Positions 22,161 through 64,000 of a stretch of 64,000 bases of DNA are shown here, piece after piece (within the stretch, counting starts at the first letter, position 1; every line of letters begins with the position of its first letter). The notes beneath the pieces were generated by a model that saw nothing but the letters and a program-made list of their open reading frames with translations, did no database searches and was not told the origin of the DNA. The DNA lies in assembly GCA_028279595.1 (NCBI GenBank), contig JANQNK010000020.1, positions 128,001 to 192,000 of the forward strand, given 5' to 3'. The position numbers were made by a program, and so were the translations under genes. This DNA is from Thermoplasmatota archaeon. GTDB lineage: Archaea > Thermoplasmatota > JAKEGO01.

Positions 22161-22249
22161 GTAAACGCATTTACTATGGCAGGCCGCCACGGCGAGCCAT
22201 CCGTCCCATTTTTATATCTCGGAAGCGTTCACCTGGACAAGGTGTTCGA

Positions 22250-24838
22250 ATGCGAGGTATCCCAGTTGTTGTAATGATGGCAGTAGCCTTGATTATCGTC
22301 GTAGGGTCGGCCACAGCCGCTACCCATACCGTTGATGATGATTGGGGCGGAGCGGACTTCTCCACGATTCAGGACGCGGTCAACGGGTCCTCCGACGGGG
22401 ACGTCATACTGGTCTATGCCGGGTACTACGATGAGATCGTGACCGTGGACGTCGAGGTGACCATCCGCGGGAACGGATCCACCGTGACCCAGGTGGACGC
22501 AGCGAACAGGACAGGTTTCAACGTCACTGCGAGGAACGTCTCGATCGAGGACCTCGAGATCGACGACTGCAGCTTCGGGGTGAACTCGACCGCACTTGGC
22601 CTGTCGGTGGAAAGGGTACTCATCAACTCCAACAACGAGGGAGTCCATCTGTGGCTCCACGACAAGGGGAACAACCTGACGGACTCCCAGTCCTTCATTG
22701 TCGGCGACACGATGGTCTCGAACTGCGATATCAGTGCCGTCGGGGACGCGATATATCTCGACGCCCGGTACTGGGGTTACGGTCTTGAGGACAGTGCCAA
22801 TGTCCAGATCGGAGCATTCATCTTCTATGGCAACGAGATCGACGCGGAGGATGGTATATGGCTACGGAACGTTCGTAAGTTCGGATACCGGATGAATTTC
22901 GCGACCAGCTTCGAATGGGACGGGATCCAGATCAACGGCAATGACATAAATGTGACCGATGACGGGGTGAACAGTTCCTACAGGTCCATGGGATACTGGG
23001 GCCGCAACATGGAGGACAACTCATCCTTTACGATGGGGGACCTCGAATTCAGGGACAACTCGATCACCACAATGGGGGATGGGTTCCACGTTCGGGCTTT
23101 CAGGTATGTCGGGAGTTACCTGTATGACGACGCGGTCGTAACGTGCGGCGACATCATCCTGGCAGACAACTTCGTGAACGCCAGCACCAACGAATCGGAC
23201 CATGCGATCAGGATGGATGGATACTACCGTTTCGGCGTTTATCTGTACAATCGATCGTCCGTGACCGGCGGCATGTTCCAGCTGAACGGCAACACCGTGA
23301 ACTGCTCGAGCAACCGCGCGATCCTCATGGACAATCTCCAGTACTTCGGCTACCAGATGTTTCACAGGTCGTCCGTGACCTACGGAGATATCGAGTTCAA
23401 CGACAACGTCGTCTACGCTATCGATCCGTACGGCGATTGGACACGGGCGTTGGTTGTCGACGGGATCGGCGATATCGGCAGCCATTGTTACAACGATACC
23501 TCAGTAACCGTCGGGAACATTTACATCATGAGGAATGTCCTGGAATCGAAGTACGAGGCCCTGGAGATCGACTCCACCAGCCTTTGGGGATGGTATTCAG
23601 AGGGTGTCGATCTCCGGATCGGGAACTTCACCGTCAGCCAGAACATCATCACCTCCCACGAAGGGGACGGGATCGAGCACGGCAACTTCTACGGCCACGC
23701 CCGACAGTGCTCGGGCGGAACCATCGAGATCGGATGGTTCGAGTATTCCAGGAACAACATCACTGCTGCTTCACGCGGGATAGAGATCACCAACCATCGA
23801 TTGCGCGCATATGACTTGGACGGAGGCAGCGATGTCACTCTCGGCGGCATGACCATCAGATGGAACAACATATCGTCGGAAGGTGACGGCATCTTCTTCC
23901 GGGGCAGGAACAGTGGGTCTTTCGGGAACACCCTCACCGGCTATGTGAAGGTCAATATCGGGGCCTACCGGATCATGGACAACAACATCGATTCCGTCGT
24001 CGGCAACGGGGTCAACCTGACGGCCCAGAAGATGGGGTCGAACCTGGCGAACGGATCTTCGGTGGAAATGGGCCCCTTCGTTGTGTCGGGGAACAGCTTC
24101 GTCAACGGTTCGGGCATAGTCATCTACAAGACGATCTACAACGGAAGGAACGTCTCTGCCTTCTCGAACTTCACCTGGCCCGGAGTGTTCGTCACGGACA
24201 ACGTTGCCAACGTGGATGATATGGGCATATGGTTGCTGAACACGGATAACGTCACTGTCACAGGTAACGAAGCCATGAACGGCGGAGCGATCATCATGAT
24301 CTCGAACTCGACGAACGCGACCGTATCCGGGAACATCATGCGTTTCTCCAGCGTCGGTCTCTACATGAACGAATCCAGCTTCTGCATGGTGGAGAACAAT
24401 ACCGCTCGGAACAATTCGTACGGGATCTATCTGGTCGAATCCGATACGAACACGATAATCTACAATGAGGTGTACCACAACTCGAACTACGGATGCAACC
24501 TACTCCTTTGCGACAACAACACCATCCATCACAACAACTTCATCAACAACAATGGGAACACCAGTCAGGGATATGATTCAAGGGACACCAACCAGTGGCA
24601 CAACGGAACCCATGGCAATTACTGGTCCGATTACAACGGAACCGATTCGAACGCGGACGGCATCGGAGACACCTCATACGATCTCGCGGGTCATGTGGAT
24701 GCGGAGGATCCGTATCCATTGATGAACATGACGTCGAACAGCGTTCCGGAACCGATACCCGAGTTCGCGGTCATGACGGTGATGGCCGTTACGTTCGTGA
24801 TGGTCGCCGCCGTGTTCAGGCGCCGGCGGCTCATCTGA
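22250..24838 (+). CDS. Beta-helix surface glycoprotein with about 37-aa coils, PEF-CTERM
   Basis: VDDDWGGADFSTIQ cap; 14 long coils; GNYWSDY cap; IPEF-TM-RRRR. Confidence 0.92.
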   Translation: MRGIPVVVMMAVALIIVVGSATAATHTVDDDWGGADFSTIQDAVNGSSDGDVILVYAGYYDEIVTVDVEVTIRGNGSTVTQVDAANRTGFNVTARNVSIEDLEIDDCSFGVNSTALGLSVERVLINSNNEGVHLWLHDKGNNLTDSQSFIVGDTMVSNCDISAVGDAIYLDARYWGYGLEDSANVQIGAFIFYGNEIDAEDGIWLRNVRKFGYRMNFATSFEWDGIQINGNDINVTDDGVNSSYRSMGYWGRNMEDNSSFTMGDLEFRDNSITTMGDGFHVRAFRYVGSYLYDDAVVTCGDIILADNFVNASTNESDHAIRMDGYYRFGVYLYNRSSVTGGMFQLNGNTVNCSSNRAILMDNLQYFGYQMFHRSSVTYGDIEFNDNVVYAIDPYGDWTRALVVDGIGDIGSHCYNDTSVTVGNIYIMRNVLESKYEALEIDSTSLWGWYSEGVDLRIGNFTVSQNIITSHEGDGIEHGNFYGHARQCSGGTIEIGWFEYSRNNITAASRGIEITNHRLRAYDLDGGSDVTLGGMTIRWNNISSEGDGIFFRGRNSGSFGNTLTGYVKVNIGAYRIMDNNIDSVVGNGVNLTAQKMGSNLANGSSVEMGPFVVSGNSFVNGSGIVIYKTIYNGRNVSAFSNFTWPGVFVTDNVANVDDMGIWLLNTDNVTVTGNEAMNGGAIIMISNSTNATVSGNIMRFSSVGLYMNESSFCMVENNTARNNSYGIYLVESDTNTIIYNEVYHNSNYGCNLLLCDNNTIHHNNFINNNGNTSQGYDSRDTNQWHNGTHGNYWSDYNGTDSNADGIGDTSYDLAGHVDAEDPYPLMNMTSNSVPEPIPEFAVMTVMAVTFVMVAAVFRRRRLI

Positions 24839-24952
24839 GATGATCATAGGTCGATATCACCTGGCGACCGGAGGTCGTGTTCCAGATCCTCACAGCCTTA
24901 CGATTAGGGTTAAATAGCCACATCTGGATTCGCTATCGCAGGAGGATCAAGC

Positions 24953-27900
24953 ATGAGGATGTGGATATTCGGATTAATGATTGTGCTAGCCATGGGTCTT
25001 GCGGGCATATCTGCCGCGGAGGACATCTACGTAGATGACGACAACACGGGAGACCCGTTGATGGACGGTGGACTCGACAATCCATATGACACGATACAGC
25101 GCGGGATCGATAACGGGACCACGGACGACGTGATCCATGTATGGGCTGGGACCTATTACGAGGAGGTCATCGTGAACATGGAGGGCCTGACCCTGATCGG
25201 GAACGGGACCGATGCGACCTACGTCAACGGTAGTTACGGCAACGACACGATATGGGTCCAGGACAACGGATGCTCACTGTCCGGTTTCAATATCAGCGCG
25301 AGCGGGACAGGCAACCACGATGCGGGATTACACTTTTCCAGCGTCGACGGTCTGGACATAGATAATTGTTCCTTCATGTGGAACATGGACGGGGTCTACG
25401 GAGGCGATTCAAACTGGGTCAATTTCACATCCTGCTATTTTGCCAACAACTCGGATTACGGCCTCTTCTCCGGCGGCGACATCTGGTTGAACATCACATG
25501 GAGCACCTTCGAGTGGAACGACCTCAGCGGCGTCTACATCGGGTCCAACACCGACGATGTCGTCATCGGCAACTGCACCTTCGAGAACAACAACCAGGCC
25601 CCCAACGAGTATCAGGGAGGCATCTCGGGTGACTACAATGACAGGGTGATCATCGAGGATTGCTACCTCAGGGACAACCCGAAGTACGGCATCCACATGA
25701 ACTACGCCGACAACTGGACCGTCCGAAACAACGACATCGTCTTCAATTGCGGAGGCGTCGCTGGACTCTCGATATACAGGTCCACCGGCGTGTGGGTGTA
25801 CGGGAACAACATCTCGAACAGCACCGGGGACGGTATCGAGAACTACGATTCCTCCTGGATATGGATACACAACAACACGATCAACGGCAATGTCATGCAG
25901 ACGAGAGATGCCGGGATAATGTGCCGGGGTACGAATGCCCACAATATCACCATCGTTGACAACAAGATCAACTGGAACGATGGTGACGGCATCTACATGC
26001 ACAGTGGACCTGACGACACCCTGGTCGCTCGTAACGACATAAGGAACAACAAGGACAACGGCGTTCAGATCAGCCAGGGGGTCAGGCATTTCGTTATTGA
26101 CAACATCATCGTCCTGAACGGTGAGTTCGGGGTCCAGTACAGCGAGGTATGGTATGGAGCCATCACAGGGAACGAGATCTCTGACAATTTGGGCTATGGT
26201 GTATCTCTCGGTCTCTGCGCGGACAACGACATCGTCGGGAACAACTTCTTCGACAACGTCGGAACGTCATCGCAGGCATACGACGACTCGATGGACAACT
26301 ACTGGGACGACACTTGGGACGAGGGCAATTACTGGTCCGATTACGGAGGAGCCGACGACAACAAGGACGGCATCGGAGATACGAACTACACCATCGATGG
26401 TAACAATTCCGCGGACAACTACCCGCTGATGGAGGTTAACGGTTCCTTCGGATACATGCCGTACATCGTCGATGACGATGCTGGTTCATGGGCTGACTAC
26501 TCGTCGATCCAGGATGCGATCAATGCATCCGAGGACGGACGGACCATCCATGTCTATGCGGGTGATTACTACGGCGACCTGATGGTGAACAAGACGGGGC
26601 TGACACTTGTCGGGAACGGTACCACCGAATCGACGATCGAGGGCGAGTTCGATGGTCCCACGGTGACACTGGCGAACAATTCGATACGTCTGTCCAACCT
26701 CGGGATGAGCATCGGGGACTACAGCGAAGGCGTGGTCGATAACTGGCGTTACTACAGCACCATCGATAATTGTTCGTTCTTCGATTTCTACGGCTACGGA
26801 TATACCGGGGGCGATTGGGCGACGATCGACAACTGCACCTTCGACAACGGGTCCACAGGAATCTATCTCTTCAATGACGATAACAACGCTGTCAAGAATT
26901 GCGTCATGACGAACATTACCGACGAGAGCGTTATGATCTATTACTCGTCCTCCGCTTCTGTCACGATGTGCTCCCTCGACTGGGGTGGGATCGTGATCGG
27001 CGGGAACTCCGCGAACGACTTCGCCACCCACACGATAGAATCGACCACCGTGAACGGAGATCCCGTGGGATATTACAAGAATATCGACAACTCGTCGGTC
27101 GCTACCGGATATTCCCAGGTCATATTGGCGACCTGCCAGGACATGGAGGTCTCGGGCCTCTCGTTCTCCGATGTCGGTACTGGCGTCCAGGTACTCGGCT
27201 CCGATCGGGTCAACGTCACGGATTGTGATTTCGATAATGTCGAAGATGCGGTCTACATCTCCCATTCGGACAATGTCACGGTCGCAGACTCGGTCGCGAC
27301 CAACATCCTTGACCATGGTTTCTCCACACAACAGGGGTCCGACATTACCTTCCGCAACATCACCGCATCCCCCGAGACCTCTGGTTCGACTACCGGTATC
27401 CATCTGAACTGGGGAAGCAGGATCACGGTGGAGGACTGCATGCTCTCCGGATTCAGCCGTGGCAGTTTCTCGTTCATCATCGACAACTCCTCTTTCACGA
27501 ACTGTACCTACTTCGAATGCAGTCAAGGCCAATTCCTTCGCAACTCGGAGAACCTCACTATAGACAAGTGCAACTTCTCCGATTCACAGAGTTACGCAAT
27601 GAGATACGACAACATCCATGGAACGGTCATGAACAGCTCGTTCTCGCGCGGTGATTTCAACAGCGTACGGCTCGAGGACTGCGAGAACATGACGTTCATG
27701 TACAACGAGTTCTTCGACAACGACGGATATGCCTTCTATCTGGACAACAGCGTGAACAACTCGATCCACCACAACAACTTCAGGGACAACAATGGAGCCC
27801 TGGGTCAGGCATTGGACAACGACGGCAACAACACCTGGGACGATGGAGTATCAGAAGGCAATTACTGGTCCGACTGGAATGGGACCGGAACATACGACGT

Positions 27901-28054
27901 GGGCGGTTCGGACAACGCAGTGGACAGATATCCACTGGGAAACCAGACGAACACGAGCGCTCCGGAGAAGATACCCGAGTTCGCGATGGTGACGGTGCTC
28001 TCGTTCACTGTCGTAGTCTTCGCCGCCGTGTTCAGGCGCCGGCGGCTCAGATGA
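24953..28054 (+). CDS. Double NosD-module beta-helix surface glycoprotein, PEF-CTERM
   Basis: Two complete cap-coil-GNYWSD modules; IPEF-TM-RRRR. Confidence 0.92.
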   Translation: MRMWIFGLMIVLAMGLAGISAAEDIYVDDDNTGDPLMDGGLDNPYDTIQRGIDNGTTDDVIHVWAGTYYEEVIVNMEGLTLIGNGTDATYVNGSYGNDTIWVQDNGCSLSGFNISASGTGNHDAGLHFSSVDGLDIDNCSFMWNMDGVYGGDSNWVNFTSCYFANNSDYGLFSGGDIWLNITWSTFEWNDLSGVYIGSNTDDVVIGNCTFENNNQAPNEYQGGISGDYNDRVIIEDCYLRDNPKYGIHMNYADNWTVRNNDIVFNCGGVAGLSIYRSTGVWVYGNNISNSTGDGIENYDSSWIWIHNNTINGNVMQTRDAGIMCRGTNAHNITIVDNKINWNDGDGIYMHSGPDDTLVARNDIRNNKDNGVQISQGVRHFVIDNIIVLNGEFGVQYSEVWYGAITGNEISDNLGYGVSLGLCADNDIVGNNFFDNVGTSSQAYDDSMDNYWDDTWDEGNYWSDYGGADDNKDGIGDTNYTIDGNNSADNYPLMEVNGSFGYMPYIVDDDAGSWADYSSIQDAINASEDGRTIHVYAGDYYGDLMVNKTGLTLVGNGTTESTIEGEFDGPTVTLANNSIRLSNLGMSIGDYSEGVVDNWRYYSTIDNCSFFDFYGYGYTGGDWATIDNCTFDNGSTGIYLFNDDNNAVKNCVMTNITDESVMIYYSSSASVTMCSLDWGGIVIGGNSANDFATHTIESTTVNGDPVGYYKNIDNSSVATGYSQVILATCQDMEVSGLSFSDVGTGVQVLGSDRVNVTDCDFDNVEDAVYISHSDNVTVADSVATNILDHGFSTQQGSDITFRNITASPETSGSTTGIHLNWGSRITVEDCMLSGFSRGSFSFIIDNSSFTNCTYFECSQGQFLRNSENLTIDKCNFSDSQSYAMRYDNIHGTVMNSSFSRGDFNSVRLEDCENMTFMYNEFFDNDGYAFYLDNSVNNSIHHNNFRDNNGALGQALDNDGNNTWDDGVSEGNYWSDWNGTGTYDVGGSDNAVDRYPLGNQTNTSAPEKIPEFAMVTVLSFTVVVFAAVFRRRRLR

Positions 28055-52541: not shown

Positions 52542-53912
52542 ATGGACTCGGACGTTATCGTGATCGGCGCCGGTCCGGCCGGCAGCACAGCAGCCAAGTT
52601 CCTAGCAGAGAAGGGACTCGATGTGCTCATTCTGGAGAAGGACAAGCTTCCCAGGGACAAGGCCTGCGGGGGCGGGGTCGTCCGCCACATCCACAGGTTC
52701 GACTACATGAGCGATTTCATCAACGACAACCACCTCGGGGAGTGCAAGGCCCACAAGTCCTACGATCGCACCCTCAAGTATTGCGTGGAGTACCACACCG
52801 ACGACGTGATGTTCTACAACGTCCGCAGGCGCGACTTCGACCACCAGCTCGTCCAGTTCGCCCTGGAGTCCGGCGCACGGCTGGAGCAGGGTGCGGACAA
52901 CATGGTCCTCGACGTCAAGCTCGAGATGGACGGTGTGAAGGTCCACACCAGGGAGGGCGACCTGCACGCGAAGGTCGTCATCGGCGCCGGAGGCGCCATG
53001 GACCCGGTCGCGAGGTACATACGCCGTTCCGGCGGGAAGCCGGACGACATGTCGGACATGTCGATCTCACCTGTGTTCGAGTACCCGGTCGAGCAGTCCT
53101 ACGTCGAGGAGACATATCCCGATTACATGTCCTACTTCCACCACGGCTTCGACGACTCGGTCTATGCCTGGGTCTTCCCCAAGCGGGAGATGCTCAACAT
53201 CGGAGTCTGGCCGAAGCCGGGTATTCGGGTCAACCCGAAGGAGAAGCTGCAGACATACGTCGACCACCTCTACTCGGTCGACCTGATGCCCGAGGAGTAC
53301 ACGGTCGACAAGTACCTCGGTGCACCCCTCCCATCGGCAGGTCCGGTGGACGTCACTTACGATCACAGGATGATAATTGTCGGTGACGCGGCGAGGCTAG
53401 TCTCGCCGCTCACCGGCGAGGGCATATACTACGCGATGGAGTCGGGCCGCATGGCCGCCCTCAGCATCGAGGAGGCACTGGCCAAGGGAAGCCCGAACGC
53501 GAGCGCACTGGCTCCGTACCAGGAGATGTGGGAGTCCACCTTCGGCGCGGACCTGAGGGCCATGAAGAGCTACGCCCGCGATGTCGCGAACCACGGCACC
53601 ATGCTCATCAAGATGGCCTCCGACGACAAGCAGCTCAAGGGGCTGTTCGCCAACCTGTTCATGGGGACCGTCGGCGCCGCAGGGATGCGGAGCAAGGTCA
53701 TGATGCGCCTCGCCATCGACGTGCCGATGGACATCCTCAAGACCATCAATCCGCTGAGCCACCGGAAACCGGGCGAGCGCTCGCCACATACGGACAGGTT
53801 CGAGGAACCCCCCATCGACGGGCCGGAGGACGAGGAGCCGGAGGAGGATCTCCCGGACGACGGGATCAGACCGCCGGAAGGTCCTGACAGCGGACCAGTG
53901 GCAGAGACGTGA
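52542..53912 (+). CDS. Geranylgeranyl reductase family protein with acidic Pro-rich tail
   Basis: GAGPAGS, PRDKACGGG, RRDFD, YAWVFPK, VGDAA..VSPLTGEGIYYAMESG. Confidence 0.9.
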   Translation: MDSDVIVIGAGPAGSTAAKFLAEKGLDVLILEKDKLPRDKACGGGVVRHIHRFDYMSDFINDNHLGECKAHKSYDRTLKYCVEYHTDDVMFYNVRRRDFDHQLVQFALESGARLEQGADNMVLDVKLEMDGVKVHTREGDLHAKVVIGAGGAMDPVARYIRRSGGKPDDMSDMSISPVFEYPVEQSYVEETYPDYMSYFHHGFDDSVYAWVFPKREMLNIGVWPKPGIRVNPKEKLQTYVDHLYSVDLMPEEYTVDKYLGAPLPSAGPVDVTYDHRMIIVGDAARLVSPLTGEGIYYAMESGRMAALSIEEALAKGSPNASALAPYQEMWESTFGADLRAMKSYARDVANHGTMLIKMASDDKQLKGLFANLFMGTVGAAGMRSKVMMRLAIDVPMDILKTINPLSHRKPGERSPHTDRFEEPPIDGPEDEEPEEDLPDDGIRPPEGPDSGPVAET

Positions 53913-54179
53913 ACCACAGTTGGATCATTCCTTCCTAGCGAATGCGCTCGATGACGTCCGATGGATGTCATCAACGCGTGTCACCCGAAGATCCCGGAAC
54001 GACAGCTGACATCCCCGATGACGAAGAGGTTGATGCCGATACGTATCTCCAGCTGGCTCGATGAGCCAGCAATCTACCCAAAGGTCTTTATCGTGACGCA
54101 TCGCTTACTTTAACGGGGAACGGTCGGCAATGCGACAACAGGACCAATTCCATTGCTATGACCGTGCAGAGGTGATGAG

Positions 54180-57100
54180 ATGCGACATCATTGGAAATTC
54201 AGCGCCCTATTCGTAGCGGCGCTCTTCTTCGGTCAGATATCGTTCGGAATGGTCTCCTACATGCCGGTCTCGACCCGTTCGAGCGGGCCGGTGGCGGTCG
54301 GGGACCTGACATATCATGATGGATATCCTGACCTGTCGAACGTGACCGGGACGACCGGGTCGGAGCCTTCCTTCTACATGATAGGGGACATGATCAACGC
54401 CGCCAACGGTAATCTCTTCCTCCAGTCGACGGACATAGCAGTGCTAGGGAAGGCGTATACCCTGGAGGTCGTCAGGACCTACAATTCGTACCTGAGGGAG
54501 CGTGACTCGCCGTTCGGCCACGGATGGACCCACAACTACGGCATGGCCCTGGAGGTGAATTCGACCAGGGCACTTCTCTTCGAGGGGGACGGCTCGATCC
54601 ACGAGCTCGCCAGGATCGGAGATGATTTCACCCCGCCCGAGGCCAAACATGTCAACCTGACCATCGAACAGGATGGGTCCTACAGGTTGCGGTCCCTCGA
54701 CGGCCGTGTATTCGCATTCAATGATACCGGGGTCTTCATGAACGAGACCGATAGGAACGGGAACATGCTGACCCTCACATACACTGGAAGCCGTCTCACC
54801 TCGGTGATGGACGACACCGGGATCGACCTGACGTTCGATTGGACCGGCGATCATATCACTTCGGTCACGGAGTCGGGACTCGACCGGAAGGTGTGGTACA
54901 ACTACTCGGATGGCAACCTGACCGATTGGTCGGATGCTACCGGGAACACCACACTGTACGGTTACAGTCATGACTCCACACACACCTTGACATCGGTCGT
55001 GAACCGTGAGGACGAGATAATCCTCTTCGATTACCGGGTCGAGACGGGGGATGACGAGGGCTATATGGTCAACAAGGTGCGCAAGGGCGTCTACAACAGG
55101 ACCAACACCACCGCATGGAACCTATTCACCGCCATGACCGTGGGATACTCGAACGGGACTACGTCATATACGAGGGGAGGAGCCTTGATATCGATCGAGC
55201 TCGACGAGGATGGACGGTGGACGAACCGCACGAACCCTGCCGGCCATGTCATGACGAATTCGTATACGAACGGTCTCCTGACCTCGTACGAGAACGAGAT
55301 GGGCGATCTATGGACATATGTCTACGATGACAACGGGCTCCTCATCGAGGAGACCGATCCCATGGGGAACACCACATACAACAATTGGACCGTCATGCAC
55401 AACGATACCTTGTTCCTCGCGGTGATCGTCAACACGACCGACTGGCGCGGGTCAACCACCGAGTACGGTTATGACGGCAGCTGGAACATGAACAGGACGA
55501 CCGACGCGCGTATGAACCACACCTATTGGGGTCTCGACGCCGACGGGTTCGTGACGAGCGTCACCCCCCCTGGACTGGGAACGTCGGTCTTCACGCGCAA
55601 CTCGATCGGCCAGGTAACGAACAGGACCGATCCACTCGATAATTCCAACCTTTACGAATATGACAATGCCAACCGACTGGTCAATCAGACCGACCCGAAC
55701 GGTGGATCAACGCTGATCGAGTACGACATGCTGGACCGTCCCGTCAGGACCACGGATGCCATGGGGAACACCACGCGGTTCACATACGACGCCGAGGGAC
55801 GGATGGTCAAGAGGGTCGACGTCAGAGGCGGTGTCCACACCTTCGATGCAGCCTCGGAAGACGGTCCAGCCAGCGTCACGGACCCGGACATGGGGACCAC
55901 CACGGTGGTCTACGACCAGTACGGCAACGTGAGGTCGAGGACGGGACCTGACAACACGACACACCGGACCGAATACGACGATCTCGGCAACCTGGTAAAG
56001 GTCACCGACAAGCTCGGCAACGAGGAGCGGATGCGGTACGACCGCATCGGCAGGTTGATCAGGTACACCGATGCAAGGGGTGCAGTCACCAGATACCAGT
56101 ACGACCCGCTCGGAAGGCCCGTTCTCATCACTGACGCCCTGGGCGGCCAGACCCGGTTCATCTACGATGCTGGCGGGAACATACTCACCCTGAAGGATAC
56201 GCTTGGACGGACCACCAGCACGGTCTACGATGAGCTAGGCAGAGCGGTCAAGATAACCGATGACAACGGAAGGTCCTCGCGATACAACTACACAGCGTAT
56301 GGAAGGATATCCCGGGCGACCGACCCACTCGGAGGGTGGGTCCAGTATCTTTACGACGATTCAGGTCGCCTGACCAGGGTCCGGAACGCACTGAACCATT
56401 CGGTCCGCTACACCTACGACGGTAACGACAACGTGCTGACGTTCACCGACCCGAACGGGAACGATTGGGAATACGTGTATGACAGGCTAGACAGGATCAC
56501 AGAGATCACCGATCCTCTCGGCAATTACACCCGGTATCGCTACGATGCTGCCGGGAACACCGTATTGGTCAGGGACACACGTGGGTCGAGGGTCCATTAT
56601 ACCTACGACAGCATGGACCGGGTCATCTCCGTTCGCGATCCCTTGGACGGTTACACGAACTACACCTACAACAAGGCCGGCTTCCCGGTACTGGTGACGG
56701 ATCCGATGAACCTGACGACGACCCATTCCTATGACGATGCGGGGCGGCGGACCTCTGTTACCGACCCCGGTGGAAACACCACTCATTTCCGGTACAATGC
56801 CGTCGGCGACCTTAGGGCGATCACATATTCGGATTCCACAAGCGTTCGCTTCTGGTACGATGCCCTCGGGAGGATGACCAGGGCCCTAGATCAGGTCTCC
56901 GCATTGCATACCTACACCTATGATGCGATGGGCCGCAGGACATCGGAGACCGATCCGCACGGCCATTCGACGACCTGGACGTACGACGACGCCAACCGCA
57001 CAGTGATCGAGACGGATGCGGACGCGAACCGGACCCTGACCGTCAGGGATCCCCTCGGCCAGGTCATCGAGGTGAGGGACTCCCTCGGAAGGTCGATAGA

Positions 57101-60100
57101 GTACGAAAGAAATTCGATAGGCCAGATCACGAACCTGATCATGCCGGACGGATCGTCGACCAACTTCACGTACGATGCGAACGGGAACCTGCTCAGGGTG
57201 GACGACCCCCAGGGCGGATACTCGATCTTTTCGGTCGACGAGCTGGACCGGCTCGTCTCCACGACGGATGCTAACGGAGGGATCGTCACCTACACCTACG
57301 ATCGGGGAACCCCTCTCGTGACCGTCCGCACCGACGCGATGAACCGGAGCACGACGTTCGGATATGACGTTCGAGGACTCGTCTCGACGATAGATGAGCC
57401 ATCTGGCAACAGGACGAACTACGGTTACGATGCTGCCGGACATCTCGTCCAGCGGGAGGACGGGGAAGGCCGTGTGACGAACTACACCTACGATCTCAAC
57501 GACAGGTGTTCAGCGATCGACTACGACGACGGCTCTGGCGTTCGGTTCACCTACGATTCGATGGGCCGCACCCTGCGGACCAAACACATCGGGGGTCAGG
57601 GTGAGTCCGTCTTCCAGAATTACGATGCCGCGGGCAGGAGGACCTGGCTGGGCATCAACTATCAGAACTTCTCGAAATACTTCATGTTCGGCTACGATCT
57701 CTCCGGTCGTCTGATATCGATGGACGATTCCGAAGGTGGAACGACGACGTACGACCATACCGCGAACGGAAGGCTCGATCAGCTGACCGCTCCGTCGGGA
57801 GGAACATATCAGTTCTCTTACGATGCTGGCGGCAGGCGTACGCGTGTGGATGGCCCGGGCGGAATATCCACATTCTACTCCTATGACGTCATGGGCCGGA
57901 CGATCAACATAACCGCCGAGTGGACGAACGGAACTCCGATCGTACGGCGACTGATGGGATACGATCTCGTGGGGAACGTGCTCAATGTGACGGACGAGAA
58001 CGACGACGTCACGGAGTACGAGTACGACGCGGTGTATCGCGTGGTGAACGCGACCTATCCGGACTCCTCATGGGAAGCCTTCACCTACAACCTCGCAGGT
58101 GACCGGGTCACCAGGTCCCAGGACGGGTGGATCACAAATTACTCTTACGACTCAGGTGGGCGTCTCGTGTCTACCGGGATCGCCTCGTATCGATACGACG
58201 GAGCCGGGAACCTCATCGAAAAGGAGGAAGGCTCGGACACGACGACGTATTATTACGACCACGAGAACCGGAAAGTGAACGTGACGATGCCGGACGGTCA
58301 CGATGTAGGATACAGTTGGTCCGGTACCGGAGCGCCCATACTCAGGACGGAGGGTACCGAATGGCTGTTCTTCTTCCCCGTTGGATACGACATATCGATG
58401 GTCTACGACGGCTCGGGTACCCCTTTGACCAGGAACGTCTACGGTACCCGAGTCGACGAACTCCTCGAGGCAGAGGACATCGGCAGTGACACTCATCGAC
58501 TTTACTCCGACAACATCGGCTCCATCGTCGCAGCGACGGGACCCTCTGGCACGGTCGTCGGACGTGTAACTTACAGCGCGTTCGGCAACTCGTCTGTGAC
58601 TGGCTCGATGCCGGTGTGGAACGGGTTCACTGGCCGTATACGCGACAACACGACGAACCTTACCCATCACAGGGCTCGTTGGTGCGACAACGATATTGGC
58701 CGGTTCACCACGGTCGATCCCATCACATCGTTCGATCCGATGGCCGTCGATCGGTACACCTACGCGGGCAACAATCCGACCACGTTCATCGATCCCCTCG
58801 GTCTCGACAGGACGCCCGCGCCGTCTACCCCGGTCGTCACGTGGACGACCACCAACGCCCAGGAGCGGAACGGCGTCACCTCCACGGAACCCTACGACCT
58901 GGAGATCGTCATCAAGATCGAGATGGACTTCTGGATAGACGAGACCACCCGGCGATCATGGCCGCACAACATAGACGGCAAATGGTACCAGTACATGTCC
59001 GATGTCAAGTACCGCGAGAAATGGCATCGGACGATCATCATATGGATCGGGATCACTGCGACGATCGAGAAGGACGAGGAGCTCATAGGCAGGGCGCAGG
59101 ACTCTCTCGATGATGCCAGGACGGCGGGAACCGTGGCGACATGGACCTCCGCCGGCGCCACTGCGGTCGGCTTCATTCCGGTCGTTGGCGATGTTCTGGG
59201 ATTGGTCGGTAGTGGAGCCAGTTTCGCTGCCGGGGCCGAATCGACCCAGAACTACGAGAACGCGATCGACGATCTGATGAACGCCCTCAATTCGGTCGGT
59301 GTCTCGCTTGATTTCGACATCATGTACTGGGTCAACGACCAACAGGTGAGCAGCACGTTCATTCAATCCGTACCCATCGCGGGCCAGATGATCTACGAGA
59401 TCCCGTCTGGTACACCAGGGACGGTCATCGGACCCTGGGGGCCTGTCAAGGTCACCGGACCGAGGCCGAAGCCCCCTGGAGGTCCGTATCCAGTTCCACA
59501 GCCACGTCCGACACCGACCCCGACACCGACACCCACACCTACGCCCACTCCAACACCGACGCCGACACCCACGCCGACCCCGACGCCCACACCGGGCCAA
59601 CTGCCTGTTCCGACACCTGAACGTCCAGTTCCCCTGCCAGGATTGCCCGGAGACCATTGGGGTCCGACGACTCCTGTGACACCGGACGGACCAGAGGCTG
59701 TGGACGACGAACCGGAAGAGGCCCCCTTCTATACGTACGAGGACGGAAAACCAGCGTTCGTTCAGGACAACACACCCTTCGAGAAGATCGCAGGCACCGA
59801 CGACGGTCGCGCCACGGATGGAGACCTCGAGGAGATCGACGAACTCCGTCATTCCTTCGATGACGAAATCGAGCCGGATACGCTTCGATATACTGCCTAC
59901 ACATCCGAGCCGACGACCAGGAACGACGGCGAGAGACCTGATAGGAGTCCTGTCGCCATCCCCGGCCTGAGCACCGGATTCGTCAATCTACCCGATTGGC
60001 TGGACGACAGGATCGTTCCGTTCGACGACTGGAAGATCGAGCCCGGACCGAACCACCCGATGACCGATGGTTCCCTCATATCACCGTTCACCGACAAGGT

Positions 60101-62054
60101 GGATTTCACGATCACGAATGACGGCGACCACGACGGACAGCATGATGTCTTCTGCAGGCTGGATCACTATGAAAAGGAGGACATATCGACCGTCGGTTTC
60201 GAGTCCGGAACACCCCTCTTTTGGTCGGTCCACAATCGTGGCACAAACACCAGCGGTGAGACGTGGGGCGAGAAGGCGAACGCCCGGACCGGCAACTACT
60301 CCTTCGGCGTCTCCGCAGGGGAGCCAGGCGAGTGGATGGAGGAGTGGCTCATCACGGATTACTACACGCTGATCGACTACGACGATCCACAGGCCGTCTT
60401 CTACTTCGATGCTGACAACGATACCTTCTCGAACTCGCTGTACGTGTTCGTATCCGATTCGGCAGGAGGACTCCCGGACGGATTCACCGGGGAACCGGAA
60501 CTCACCATCACACCGTCGGACTGGACGAGCCACACCGGGTTCGCCGAGCCAGTGAAGGTGGACCTGTCGGATTACAGCGATAGCGAGGACGTGCAACTCG
60601 CGTTAGTATGGGAGGGCGGTGAGTCCAAACCGGTCTTCATCGACGATTTTTCCATCGGCGGACTCACCTTCGTAGAGATCGAGACCCAGAGCGACGGTCC
60701 TTTCTACATCGACCCCGAGCCTGCGGAGGGAACACTGGCCAGCACAACGGCCGATGTAACCTTCGACATCGACCTCACCTCCGACGCTGGTGGCGGAAGC
60801 GGTGGAGGCGTATACCGCATCACTGCGTGGTTGAATGCGACCGGTTTTGACGACGACCCGTACAACGATGTCCACCAGGTCACGGTGACCGCCCTGAACA
60901 TCACGTCCCCGTACATCACGGTGGTCTCCACGGCCGGTATGGGAGAGGCCGATATCAGGATAGAATGGACACCTGCACCCTACGCCGACGCATACGAGGT
61001 CTACTTGACGTCCGACCCGGAGGTCTGGGACTTCTCCTTCCCGGTCGCCACTGTCAACACCACCTCCTTCGTGGACGTGGGGGTCAATGACGAGAAGCAC
61101 GGCAACTATGCCCAAATGCGGTATTACACCGTCCGAGGGATCAACGGGACGACTGATGTTCCCGGACAGAACTCGCAGGTCGCTGCGAAGCTGTCCAAGA
61201 CCTTCGGAGGCGGCGGGGGTTCCGGCGCGTACTGGCAGTCGTTCTCGATACCGTACGAGACCACCATGACCTTCACCGCGGACGACTACTGCGACTGGAT
61301 CCCCAACTGCCAGGGGATCAGCCGTTACCTCGTTCCTAACCAGACCTGGGAATACCATGCCACCGCGATGCCCAAGGGCGCCACTGACTGGACGATGGTC
61401 CCGGGAGAGGCGTACATGGCAGCCCTTTCAGCGGACTCGACCTTCACCTTCACGGGGATAAGCGCTGCCTGGACGAATCCTTCACACGAGGGTCTCGAGG
61501 CTCCTGGCAACTTCACAGTGACAGTGGACCAGAGCAATTCGAGCAGCGTCAACCTCTCATGGGACGACGTTCCTGGAGCAGCGTCCTACCGCATCTACAG
61601 GAGCGAGTCAAGGGGTCAGTTCGATATCGTGAAAGGGTGGATCAGGGAGTTCGACGATGACATCAATACGACGCGGAACCATTACACCGATCCATCCCTT
61701 CCGGACCTCCCCGAGATATTCTACATGATCGTCGCAGTCGACAGTGAAGGCAGGATCGGAGACACCACACCGGTCCGCGGAAGGTTCCGGATGGACCTGA
61801 CCGGTGCTGTGGGTGGCCTGTGGAACCCGATAGCACTCCCGGCAGTCCCGGCGACGAACCGAACCGCGGACTGGTACTGTGACGAGATGGACGACTGTGA
61901 CGGTATCTCACGATACCTCACCGCTTCCGACACGTGGGAGTTCCACGCCACCGGCATGCCGGAGGGAGCGACGGACTGGGACCTCGAGCCAGGGGTCGGC
62001 TACATGGCCGCGATCTCTGGCGGAGGTGGAATATACTGGTACTTCAATACTTAG
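54180..62054 (+). CDS. Secreted Rhs/YD-repeat protein (DUF6531-like plug, YD shell, Rhs core) with C-terminal cargo, PT linker and FN3/Cys-repeat tail
   Basis: Signal peptide; GDMINAANGN...RTYNS...FGHGW; dozens of YDxxGR repeats; RARW.D..IGRF..VDP...YAGNNP..FIDPLG; GAGGTGA site. Confidence 0.93.
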   Translation: MRHHWKFSALFVAALFFGQISFGMVSYMPVSTRSSGPVAVGDLTYHDGYPDLSNVTGTTGSEPSFYMIGDMINAANGNLFLQSTDIAVLGKAYTLEVVRTYNSYLRERDSPFGHGWTHNYGMALEVNSTRALLFEGDGSIHELARIGDDFTPPEAKHVNLTIEQDGSYRLRSLDGRVFAFNDTGVFMNETDRNGNMLTLTYTGSRLTSVMDDTGIDLTFDWTGDHITSVTESGLDRKVWYNYSDGNLTDWSDATGNTTLYGYSHDSTHTLTSVVNREDEIILFDYRVETGDDEGYMVNKVRKGVYNRTNTTAWNLFTAMTVGYSNGTTSYTRGGALISIELDEDGRWTNRTNPAGHVMTNSYTNGLLTSYENEMGDLWTYVYDDNGLLIEETDPMGNTTYNNWTVMHNDTLFLAVIVNTTDWRGSTTEYGYDGSWNMNRTTDARMNHTYWGLDADGFVTSVTPPGLGTSVFTRNSIGQVTNRTDPLDNSNLYEYDNANRLVNQTDPNGGSTLIEYDMLDRPVRTTDAMGNTTRFTYDAEGRMVKRVDVRGGVHTFDAASEDGPASVTDPDMGTTTVVYDQYGNVRSRTGPDNTTHRTEYDDLGNLVKVTDKLGNEERMRYDRIGRLIRYTDARGAVTRYQYDPLGRPVLITDALGGQTRFIYDAGGNILTLKDTLGRTTSTVYDELGRAVKITDDNGRSSRYNYTAYGRISRATDPLGGWVQYLYDDSGRLTRVRNALNHSVRYTYDGNDNVLTFTDPNGNDWEYVYDRLDRITEITDPLGNYTRYRYDAAGNTVLVRDTRGSRVHYTYDSMDRVISVRDPLDGYTNYTYNKAGFPVLVTDPMNLTTTHSYDDAGRRTSVTDPGGNTTHFRYNAVGDLRAITYSDSTSVRFWYDALGRMTRALDQVSALHTYTYDAMGRRTSETDPHGHSTTWTYDDANRTVIETDADANRTLTVRDPLGQVIEVRDSLGRSIEYERNSIGQITNLIMPDGSSTNFTYDANGNLLRVDDPQGGYSIFSVDELDRLVSTTDANGGIVTYTYDRGTPLVTVRTDAMNRSTTFGYDVRGLVSTIDEPSGNRTNYGYDAAGHLVQREDGEGRVTNYTYDLNDRCSAIDYDDGSGVRFTYDSMGRTLRTKHIGGQGESVFQNYDAAGRRTWLGINYQNFSKYFMFGYDLSGRLISMDDSEGGTTTYDHTANGRLDQLTAPSGGTYQFSYDAGGRRTRVDGPGGISTFYSYDVMGRTINITAEWTNGTPIVRRLMGYDLVGNVLNVTDENDDVTEYEYDAVYRVVNATYPDSSWEAFTYNLAGDRVTRSQDGWITNYSYDSGGRLVSTGIASYRYDGAGNLIEKEEGSDTTTYYYDHENRKVNVTMPDGHDVGYSWSGTGAPILRTEGTEWLFFFPVGYDISMVYDGSGTPLTRNVYGTRVDELLEAEDIGSDTHRLYSDNIGSIVAATGPSGTVVGRVTYSAFGNSSVTGSMPVWNGFTGRIRDNTTNLTHHRARWCDNDIGRFTTVDPITSFDPMAVDRYTYAGNNPTTFIDPLGLDRTPAPSTPVVTWTTTNAQERNGVTSTEPYDLEIVIKIEMDFWIDETTRRSWPHNIDGKWYQYMSDVKYREKWHRTIIIWIGITATIEKDEELIGRAQDSLDDARTAGTVATWTSAGATAVGFIPVVGDVLGLVGSGASFAAGAESTQNYENAIDDLMNALNSVGVSLDFDIMYWVNDQQVSSTFIQSVPIAGQMIYEIPSGTPGTVIGPWGPVKVTGPRPKPPGGPYPVPQPRPTPTPTPTPTPTPTPTPTPTPTPTPTPTPGQLPVPTPERPVPLPGLPGDHWGPTTPVTPDGPEAVDDEPEEAPFYTYEDGKPAFVQDNTPFEKIAGTDDGRATDGDLEEIDELRHSFDDEIEPDTLRYTAYTSEPTTRNDGERPDRSPVAIPGLSTGFVNLPDWLDDRIVPFDDWKIEPGPNHPMTDGSLISPFTDKVDFTITNDGDHDGQHDVFCRLDHYEKEDISTVGFESGTPLFWSVHNRGTNTSGETWGEKANARTGNYSFGVSAGEPGEWMEEWLITDYYTLIDYDDPQAVFYFDADNDTFSNSLYVFVSDSAGGLPDGFTGEPELTITPSDWTSHTGFAEPVKVDLSDYSDSEDVQLALVWEGGESKPVFIDDFSIGGLTFVEIETQSDGPFYIDPEPAEGTLASTTADVTFDIDLTSDAGGGSGGGVYRITAWLNATGFDDDPYNDVHQVTVTALNITSPYITVVSTAGMGEADIRIEWTPAPYADAYEVYLTSDPEVWDFSFPVATVNTTSFVDVGVNDEKHGNYAQMRYYTVRGINGTTDVPGQNSQVAAKLSKTFGGGGGSGAYWQSFSIPYETTMTFTADDYCDWIPNCQGISRYLVPNQTWEYHATAMPKGATDWTMVPGEAYMAALSADSTFTFTGISAAWTNPSHEGLEAPGNFTVTVDQSNSSSVNLSWDDVPGAASYRIYRSESRGQFDIVKGWIREFDDDINTTRNHYTDPSLPDLPEIFYMIVAVDSEGRIGDTTPVRGRFRMDLTGAVGGLWNPIALPAVPATNRTADWYCDEMDDCDGISRYLTASDTWEFHATGMPEGATDWDLEPGVGYMAAISGGGGIYWYFNT
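59508..59594 (+). repeat. (Pro-Thr)14-Pro coding repeat within Rhs
   Basis: CCN-ACN hexamers using all four Pro codons and all four Thr codons. Confidence 0.9.
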
Positions 62055-62067
62055 GAGGTGTGATGGC

Positions 62068-62610
62068 ATGGGAACAGAAATCAAGGTGAGGATGGCGCGG
62101 ACCGCATCGGTCCAGGCAGTGATATGCATCGTCGTTCTCCTTATCGTGGCGGGCGGAGGGAACGCAGCCATGAAGGCCGTGTGGGGCCAGGTCTACAAGT
62201 CGGACCACGACGCGGCCTCGGGATACAACGGTACCTGGGCAGCGATCGTGGTGAACCACAATGGGACGAACACCACCTACGAGGACCCGAACGGCCTCGA
62301 CGGATCGGGATACTACTCGGTGACGATACCGGACGGTGAATGGTCGGTCAACGACACGTTCAAGGTGAAGGTCGACGGGACACCGTGGAGCGACGCGAAT
62401 GGGTCTGCCCACAACGCCACTGGCGGGGGTTCTGGCCACAACTACACCGATAGGACGTTCATACTGGATGACGGCATCAGCCAGAGGCAGGACGTCGAGA
62501 CCCAGACCACGACCGAGATCCCGGAGTTCGCCGTTGGGCCGGTCGTTCTCATCGGTCTGCTGGCAGTGGTCACGTTCCTGAGGATCGACAGGCGAAGGCG
62601 CAGACATTGA
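62068..62610 (+). CDS. Small PEF-CTERM surface glycoprotein co-transcribed with Rhs
   Basis: GGAGGTG site 13 nt after the Rhs stop; signal peptide; VWGQVY...DGSGYYSV beta-sandwich; IPEF-TM-RRRRR. Confidence 0.88.
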   Translation: MGTEIKVRMARTASVQAVICIVVLLIVAGGGNAAMKAVWGQVYKSDHDAASGYNGTWAAIVVNHNGTNTTYEDPNGLDGSGYYSVTIPDGEWSVNDTFKVKVDGTPWSDANGSAHNATGGGSGHNYTDRTFILDDGISQRQDVETQTTTEIPEFAVGPVVLIGLLAVVTFLRIDRRRRRH

Positions 62611-62715
62611 GCGGAAAGTGTTGAGACCGGCGCGACAGATCAATACCCAGTGTAACATCTGTAATAGAAGGTTTATTAAGGCGAACGTTTCTTTCTGGGC
62701 ATTGGGGGTTCACAC

Positions 62716-64000
62716 GTGTTGAAAGTGAATAGACAACTGAGCGTATGTGTTCTGATGGCGGTAATGGCCCTCGCTGCATTCCTTATTGTGGCGATACCGC
62801 AGAATTCCAGCGGCGCCACCTATGTCGTCGATGACGACAATGGGACCTGGCGGCATTACTCCACGATCGGAGCAGCGATATCTGGCGTGAACAGCACCGA
62901 CACGATCGAGATCTATGCCGGTACCTATACCGAGGACCTGAGCATCTCCAAGGCTCTCACGTTCGTCGGGAACGGCTCCGGGACGGTCGTTGCAGGGGAC
63001 CATGACATATCCGTGGAGGACGTCTATTTCGATTCGATCAACTTCACCAACCCGACACCGAGCGACTACACGTTCGTTGTGGACGCTTCCAGCGGCAACC
63101 TCGACGGCCTTGGCTGGTCCAACTGCATCTTCGTCCTCGAGGGATATGCGGGCATCCATCTCGGCGGCGATGTCGGTTCATCGAACACCTTGATCAACGT
63201 CGCCATAACGGACTGCGAGTTCTGGGGACCGAGTTCGAAGGCCGCGAACCCCTTCAAGACGGGCGGCACGTTCGGCACCCCTGGTCTGGGCGTCGGCATA
63301 TCCACGATGAACTTCACCGGGAACTCCATCATCCGTGCTTCAATACCTATCCTGCTGGAGGATAACGATATCAGCGGCGTCTACTTCGACGACAACACGT
63401 TCACAGGCACTGACGGAGTTGTCTACTTCTGGGGGAACGACACGCCCTCCGGGGTCCTGACCGACTTCGAGTTCACGAACAACGAGGTGGACGACACGAA
63501 CTCCTACGGCGTCGGCATCGGCTATCCGAACGGCACCTTCACCTCAGCGAACCTCGGTACCGGCAACCTGGTGAACTACAACAACATCGACGTCGCCGGT
63601 GCATACGGCATGGGCGGTGTCAGCAACTTCATGGGTGGGTCCCTCGACGCCACCATGAACTGGTGGGGCGCCTCCGACGGTCCGAGCGGCTCCGGTCCTG
63701 GATCGGGCTCACCGATATCCCACGACGTGACCTTCAATCCCTTCTACGACGAGATGGTCGGCAACGTATCCAGCAGCCTCGTGATCGACATCGATGGGGA
63801 CGAGACCTTCGATGGCTTCGTCGGCGAGGTCGACGACCTCACCATCGACGACGGGTCCGACGTGACATTCATGAACTCCGTGGTCACGGTAGCGGGAGAC
63901 CTCGATGTCTCATCCGGGACCTTGACGTTGATCGACACGACGCTGTATGTTGGCGACGTGCTTGTCTCGTCCGGCGGGACATGGGTCGTGGGCGACAGCA
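62716..64000 (+). CDS. Secreted beta-helix surface protein (partial, runs off the window)
   Basis: Open frame absent from the ORF track: signal peptide, ATYVVDDDNGTWRHYSTIGAAI cap, DATMNWWGASDGP; TTTATTAAG promoter upstream; start GTG/TTG uncertain. Confidence 0.85.
   Translation, partial: MLKVNRQLSVCVLMAVMALAAFLIVAIPQNSSGATYVVDDDNGTWRHYSTIGAAISGVNSTDTIEIYAGTYTEDLSISKALTFVGNGSGTVVAGDHDISVEDVYFDSINFTNPTPSDYTFVVDASSGNLDGLGWSNCIFVLEGYAGIHLGGDVGSSNTLINVAITDCEFWGPSSKAANPFKTGGTFGTPGLGVGISTMNFTGNSIIRASIPILLEDNDISGVYFDDNTFTGTDGVVYFWGNDTPSGVLTDFEFTNNEVDDTNSYGVGIGYPNGTFTSANLGTGNLVNYNNIDVAGAYGMGGVSNFMGGSLDATMNWWGASDGPSGSGPGSGSPISHDVTFNPFYDEMVGNVSSSLVIDIDGDETFDGFVGEVDDLTIDDGSDVTFMNSVVTVAGDLDVSSGTLTLIDTTLYVGDVLVSSGGTWVVGDS

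Follow-up and report, generated by a model that had tools for sequence, protein, structure and literature searches.

We analysed a 64,000-nucleotide stretch of a Thermoplasmatota genome (the window), in which a long Rhs gene is closely followed by a small gene for a probable surface protein. Both lie on the forward strand, and their features are as follows.

54180–62054, +, Rhs gene, intact open reading frame of 2624 aa from the ORF list (product P0001)
54180–54248, +, probable Sec signal peptide, about aa 1–23, with predicted cleavage (hydropathy; orthologues have the same pattern)
54384–54602, +, DUF6531 plug domain, aa 69–141, immediately 3' of the signal peptide (Pfam E 1.4e-16)
54627–58571, +, YD-repeat shell, aa 150–1464 (26 RHS repeats; matches to Rhs proteins in the PDB)
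58572–58805, +, Rhs core, aa 1465–1542, with R1500, D1513 and D1538 and a predicted cut after L1542 (TIGR03696 E 5e-15, above cut-off)
58803–59474, +, cargo, aa 1542–1765, 224 aa, 24.6 kDa, long beta strands around a helix, hydrophobic turn and helix
59121–59234, +, Gly/Ala-rich hydrophobic hairpin with an IPxxG turn, aa 1648–1685, kept in 7/7 members of the cargo family
59475–59999, +, Pro-rich linker then acidic spacer, poorly conserved (sequence; orthologue alignment)
59508–59591, +, (PT)14 repeat, aa 1777–1804 (sequence)
60000–60899, +, beta region, aa 1941–2240, with a cleaved-adhesin/CBM-like jelly roll (Foldseek 3m1h E 4.8e-5)
60900–61199, +, FN3-like domain 1 (GH85_C match)
61218–61469, +, GWN module 1, aa 2347–2430, predicted docking surface for the neighbour (profile; predicted complex)
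61485–61784, +, FN3-like domain 2 (domain scan)
61806–62051, +, GWN module 2, aa 2543–2624, the C-terminal end (profile)
62068–62610, +, candidate anchor gene, 180 aa, 13 nt 3' of the Rhs stop: signal peptide, ectodomain, PEF motif, transmembrane (TM) segment and basic tail
62167–62514, +, uncatalogued beta ectodomain, 116 aa, within the candidate anchor gene

A first-pass annotation, made from the letters of this DNA, had described an exported Rhs protein with a DUF6531-like plug, a YD shell, two core aspartates, about 1080 further residues and no C-terminal TM segment, and all of these elements were recovered. Hydropathy placed a hydrophobic stretch at aa 5–30 and found no TM segment at the C terminus, and the HMM scan suggested at that stage returned DUF6531, the RHS repeats and a TIGR03696 core. 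D1513 lies in a VDP motif and D1538 in DPLG; R1500 completes an Arg-Asp-Asp triad that is intact in P0001 and its orthologues and is spaced as in BiTLP. The (PT)14 repeat lies where it had been placed and is not conserved, with a Gly/Pro linker instead in the relative P0005. The jelly roll of the beta region, which is the one part of the tail that was not poorly modelled, resembles the cleaved adhesin of gingipains, and the Pfam Cleaved_Adhesin family matched this region in P0005 (E 0.0012). N-glycosylation sequons are 2.4 to 3 times more frequent in the shell and tail than in shuffled sequences (44 in the shell versus 18.6 in shuffles).

The layout does not arise from an assembly error. Positions 53500–63500 are covered with 0 differences by one 39.6-kb contig of another assembly, made from a coral-metagenome run that probably represents the source sample, and two orthologues (JGI metagenome; another genus of the family) are collinear with P0001 from end to end and have the same small gene after them; chimerism and a missed stop codon are thereby ruled out. 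No Rhs core besides that of P0001 was found in this genome, which is 86% complete; nor did we find any T6SS or Tc gene in it, or any match to PAAR, SpvB/TcB or sheath proteins, which extends to the whole genome what the annotation had said of PAAR and TcB genes nearby. P0001 itself has neither a match to an NHL propeller before the shell nor an FN-plug.

We compared the size of the region downstream of the core with the space inside known shells. The 1083 aa after the core of P0001 have a mass of 118 kDa and a volume of ~143,000 Å3, whereas the cavity of BiTLP has been measured at ~44,000 Å3 (PMC13018210); Tc cocoons have a capacity of ~30 kDa. The cargo, at ~30,000 Å3, can therefore fit, but the rest of the tail cannot. 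By this comparison of volumes the post-core tail is too large to be enclosed, at about three times a measured cavity, as the annotation had argued. Its further points that the cargo would remain joined to the tail and that P0001 is extracellular are also supported. Long tails are a minority among the 82 homologues of the N-terminal region, 76 of which have 91–480 aa after the core and six more than 600 aa, yet they recur, also in Bacteroidota-type proteins, and thus form a recurrent class that is unique neither to this locus nor to archaea. The proposed search of Thermoplasmatota for the same architecture gave two orthologues together with recurrent long-tailed forms of other composition.

The same annotation had considered the architecture to be without described precedent, a view weakened by the solved topology of the mosquito protein SGS1. 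In SGS1 of Aedes aegypti, the shell encloses ~230 hydrophobic residues that come after the autoprotease site, and a mid-opening lets the chain out (PMC9935623). SGS1 resembles P0001 in its Rhs/YD shell, its full Arg-Asp-Asp triad and its conserved hydrophobic segment after the cut site. It differs in being eukaryotic, in lacking a classical signal peptide and in having a large N-terminal propeller, lectin domains and six predicted TM helices; moreover, its distal domain is removed by furin and it has no docking partner, whereas the recognition domains of P0001 lie C-terminal to the cargo. The T6SS Rhs effectors (RhsA, 7q97; Tse5, 8cp6; Tse15) and TcC share the homologous shell (RhsA E 6e-51), the DUF6531 plug and the DPxG aspartyl core, but have 15–30 kDa after the core rather than 1083 aa; P0001, unlike them, has a signal peptide and inferred glycosylation, and lacks PAAR, VgrG, TcB and an immunity gene. 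BiTLP (9ifo; PMC13018210) is likewise a secreted YD shell with the same triad spacing and a hydrophobic, membrane-active cargo, but teneurin-like proteins (TLPs) have an FN-plug, an NHL domain, a terminal cargo of ~15 kDa and an immunity gene, none of which belongs to the P0001 system. The Rhs toxins of Methanosarcina acetivorans are also archaeal, but the published description is of classical systems that have toxin cassettes together with immunity genes and lack an internal cargo or tail (PMC3482391). MAIN/GAIN domains are surface-tethered self-cutters for which release by force has been proposed, and some are fused to RHS toxins (10.64898/2026.05.12.724683), but their fold and chemistry are unrelated, and the cutter of P0001 is the Rhs core itself.

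The cargo had no Pfam or NCBIfam match, and no toxin domain was recognised in it. An AF2 model was of low confidence (pLDDT 47), and with this model as query Foldseek, VIA-align and Atlas returned no significant fold match; Atlas feature matches were weak. Weak rows for perforin and aerolysin-pore folds were set aside because they reflect long strands only. Among 1.8 billion representatives, four more cargo relatives were detected: three lie immediately behind an Rhs core, and the fourth is a fragment. Pattern scans added 0 genomes, the Rhs cores recovered in a metagenome scan were ordinary, none with more than 488 aa behind it, and a profile search of longer proteins gave 0 matches and also missed the known members. 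All seven relatives share the Gly/Ala-rich helix-turn-helix with its IPxxG turn, in a hairpin of moderate hydrophobicity (best KD 1.8), and 0 polar residues are invariant among them, which makes an enzyme unlikely; an enzymatic toxin, for which there was also no family match, was rejected. None of the 25 asparagines in the three orthologous cargos lies in a sequon, compared with 123 of 273 in the shells, although the orthologues are not independent samples. A cargo free of sequons amid a shell and tail rich in them fits an extracellular protein whose cargo is shielded, and, taken with the size of the cargo, is compatible with the topology of SGS1.

These properties bear on the possibility that P0001 is a contact-dependent pore-forming toxin, in which a second cut in the Pro-rich or acidic linker would free the cargo to kill competitors; an immunity gene would be unneeded because the target membrane would consist of a different lipid type. 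The cargos of BiTLP and Tse5 are reported to be hydrophobic and membrane-active (PMC13018210, PMC10684867), and relatives with a common tail carry different cargos, as detailed below. However, we found no second protease site or domain, and the cargo diverges no faster than the shell at this locus. In addition, a Bacteroidota-type locus carries the same cargo family in a split Rhs gene lacking the long tail, followed by secreted proteins and no evident immunity gene. We therefore regard a freed pore-forming toxin as quite unlikely.

Comparisons at two evolutionary distances gave different pictures of the cargo slot. Among orthologues, identity is 37–48% for the cargo and 41–45% for the shell, so that faster divergence of the cargo was not seen, and the GWN modules are the best conserved part of the protein (56–68%). 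Among distant relatives the slot changes its content. Two Rhs proteins of another genome (G351) keep the beta region and have GWN modules at their C-terminal end, and the one with an intact N terminus has a plug in common with P0001 (46%), but their cargo is an unrelated acidic coiled coil without the hydrophobic hairpin (KD under 0.9); membrane insertion is therefore not general to this layout. P0077 and P0083, both Bacteroidota-type, have nearly identical shells, unrelated internal cargos and a common DUF7619, and P0012, P0014 and P0020 have three different cargos before one other common tail. In a tree of shells, the three orthologues form a clade, other archaeal shells are weakly placed (93/90), and the Bacteroidota-type shell with a P0001-type cargo clusters with P0077 and P0083 (100/99), apart from P0001. 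By sequence comparison, then, the cargo slot is exchanged at depth and changes at the pace of the shell among orthologues; the variable cargo that had been predicted between core and tail exists across distant relatives but is not hypervariable among close ones.

Several of these relatives have features of their own. P0012 (L096), P0014 and P0020 are 2000–4300 aa long, with a tail that opens with a PDDN motif and contains MG2 and beta-helix domains, and P0012 adjoins archaeal RpoD and ribosomal genes. P0083 carries a T9SS tag. The two G351 genes (L035, L036) are paralogues with near-identical coiled-coil cargo, one of which has a peptidase C13-like domain inserted in a tail of 2163 aa. A further Rhs gene (L044 5054–11320) lies in five pieces, through frameshifts or assembly errors, and ends in the P0001-type cargo family; its Pro/Trp-rich ILWDP repeats also occur in the spacers of P0004 and P0005. 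In several Thermoplasmatota genomes of another family, the core is followed by a short hydrophobic cargo, more domains and a TM anchor. These proteins (family f16; L037, L038, L012, L015, L032) have a short variable hydrophobic cargo, a conserved domain starting with DPN, FN3/PKD-like domains and a C-terminal TM segment, and would represent another form within this phylum, one anchored in the membrane. A classical cassette array also exists in Thermoplasmatota: at L023 (G142:C3:327908–332484), three orphan core fragments come after an Rhs gene.

The even divergence of cargo and shell would also be expected of a plain docked adhesin or scaffold, similar to a teneurin, in which the shell has a structural role, the cargo folds as a stalk domain outside it, and any cleavage serves only maturation or shedding. 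P0001 is a single copy with neither orphan cassettes nor an immunity gene, its tail has an adhesin-like jelly roll and FN3 domains, and the genome encodes about 30 PEF/PGF-CTERM surface proteins. However, both catalytic aspartates are kept, whereas teneurins lack the second (PMC9935623), an unglycosylated hydrophobic hairpin would be odd if exposed, and relatives exchange the cargo slot. On balance an adhesin of this kind seems unlikely.

We next consider how P0001, which lacks a TM segment, might be held at the surface. The two terminal units had been read as FN3 plus a Cys module; the units are present, but the Cys pair is missing from most distant members of the module family. This uncatalogued 84-aa sequence, which we call the GWN module, covers the former Cys modules and had no Pfam or PDB match. 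It occurs in 41 of the 401 Thermoplasmatota genomes, where its carriers are mainly secreted proteins other than Rhs, many of which have it at the C terminus, and some genomes, G351 included, have at least 14 matches. The neighbouring gene had been called a PEF-CTERM gene. Its position is as described, and its product ends in an IPEF motif (AEF in the G001 orthologue), a TM segment and a basic tail, but the curated NCBIfam PEF-CTERM model matched neither this protein nor a control PEF protein of the same genome. The label consequently rests on the motif together with a match to the exosortase/archaeosortase family, of which the genome has one above and one below the cut-off.

A search seeded with the ectodomain, for which, as for the GWN module, the PDB contained no similar sequence, led to genes lying directly after non-Rhs proteins that end in two FN3 and GWN units. 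In a survey of 25 loci chosen by the GWN module alone, with the seeds left out, the next gene could be read at 17 and carried an ectodomain relative at nine of these, in most cases together with a signal peptide and with a terminus of PGF or TM type. The nine genes were selected by eye ahead of the profile test. The ectodomain profile matches their domains (96%, E 1.7e-9); conversely, when a profile is built from these domains alone, the neighbour of P0001 ranks second of 12,016 ORFs. We then modelled FN3 plus GWN module 1 with the ectodomain, and the predicted complex reached an ipSAE of 0.77, compared with 0.01 for the best of three controls. Of 80 solved complexes 58 reach the mark used, as do 2 of 110 mismatched pairs, and this mark is only roughly valid for custom alignments. 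Contact agreement between runs was at least 95%, partner pLDDT was at least 79, and contacts were confined to the GWN module, with a predicted contact stretch at W2390–D2403. On the GWN side, 15 of 23 contact positions are invariant compared with 71 of 173 other positions (p 0.025), whereas interface residues on the anchor side are no better conserved than others (p 0.47). The model supports a predicted binding of the GWN module to the ectodomain. Together with the next-gene survey, it bears out the view that the pairing of the two genes is meaningful.

Conceivably, P0001 is instead a classical polymorphic toxin whose cargo is bound at the surface by the PEF-CTERM protein in the role of an immunity protein. 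The latter does fill the immunity slot at all three orthologous loci. Its relatives, however, come after non-Rhs genes that end in GWN modules, the interface is predicted on the GWN module, and its ectodomain diverges at the housekeeping rate: it is 80% identical to that of the L001 orthologue, for which housekeeping genes are 77–84% and Rhs ~44% identical. We consider this reading very improbable. The neighbour is probably an anchor for GWN modules, and not an immunity protein, as judged by gene pairing and modelling.

In cellulosomes, a duplicated C-terminal dockerin tag on many secreted proteins plugs into a surface-anchored cohesin beta-sandwich. The GWN tag and its anchor follow a similar arrangement, although there was no PF00404 or PF00963 match and the resemblance is one of analogy only. 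A protein with both elements is also present: L111 4349–7108 (G093) has an N-terminal anchor-type domain, CARDB-like repeats and two GWN modules, and because the two kinds of domain coexist in it, it may act as an adaptor linking proteins into chains, in the way of a scaffoldin. L157 811–1998 (G149) likewise begins with an anchor-type domain. Weaker ectodomain-like domains lie in two other secreted proteins of the P0001 genome (C14:123470–125734 and C18:364765–369453), whose products are possible alternative docking sites.

P0001 is an Rhs protein that differs from classical polymorphic toxins in its tail of 1083 aa, a cargo that diverges no faster than the shell and an anchor-like next gene, from T6SS/Tc effectors in having a signal peptide and no PAAR, SpvB/TcB or sheath match in the genome, and from TLPs in having no FN-plug and no NHL match. 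By analogy, it would work most like SGS1 mounted on a cohesin–dockerin-like anchor. We propose that P0001 is an Rhs cage docked at the cell surface, with a membrane-inserting tip kept on a leash, and give this whole chain of steps a probability of roughly 0.5. In this model, both proteins would be exported by Sec and, as the sequon excess suggests, N-glycosylated. The C-terminal GWN modules would then bind the PEF-CTERM ectodomain and retain the TM-less Rhs protein at the surface in the manner of dockerin and cohesin, a step that we consider likely from the gene pairing and the predicted complex. Because the triad is intact, the core very probably cuts itself after DPLG-L. The 24.6-kDa cargo would, with reasonable likelihood, remain protected inside the shell, with the chain passing out across its wall, as in SGS1. 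As the cut falls before the cargo, it is the shell that could detach, and contact or pulling may uncap the hairpin, still tied to the producer, which would enter a neighbouring membrane to hold or damage that cell; this last step could as easily fail as hold. A broader proposal is more tentative: that there are prokaryotic Rhs surface harpoons with a removable shell cap and an exchangeable membrane-inserting tip tied to the producer, mounted in Thermoplasmatota by an undescribed pair similar to cohesin and dockerin.

Archaeal means of attacking or holding neighbours are poorly known. Rhs cages are described as containers for terminal toxins, and this locus suggests that they may also cap a tethered tip, a prokaryotic parallel to the topology of SGS1 and teneurins. 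If the proposal is true, such proteins would serve as weapons or grappling devices that act on contact and depend on neither an injection machine nor an immunity gene. What the locus appears to add is the combination of a long post-core tail with GWN docking through a predicted interface that can be tested. The 84-aa module and the 116-aa domain offer a small one-to-one test case with predictions at the level of residues, and are a candidate system for surface docking, whose tag many secreted proteins of Thermoplasmatota carry. In a literature search that covered few subscription papers, we found no paper on a prokaryotic Rhs protein with such a layout or on the GWN pair, and nothing relevant on archaeal or Thermoplasmata Rhs tails, Rhs proteins with T9SS tags, DUF7619 or the GWN motif.

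Other large surface proteins are encoded around the locus. The gene after the candidate anchor, which begins in the window (62716–64000; C18:190680–198815 in full), encodes a surface protein of ~2700 aa that lacks a GWN module, is syntenic at all three orthologous loci and evolves as fast as the Rhs protein (43% and 35% identity). Elsewhere in the window (19467–28054), three beta-helix surface proteins with PEF motifs, TM segments and basic tails lie in tandem, and more tandem arrays occur on C12 and C19. Outside the window, C18:210352–251607 is a single ORF of ~13,750 aa with a signal peptide and a C-terminal TM segment.
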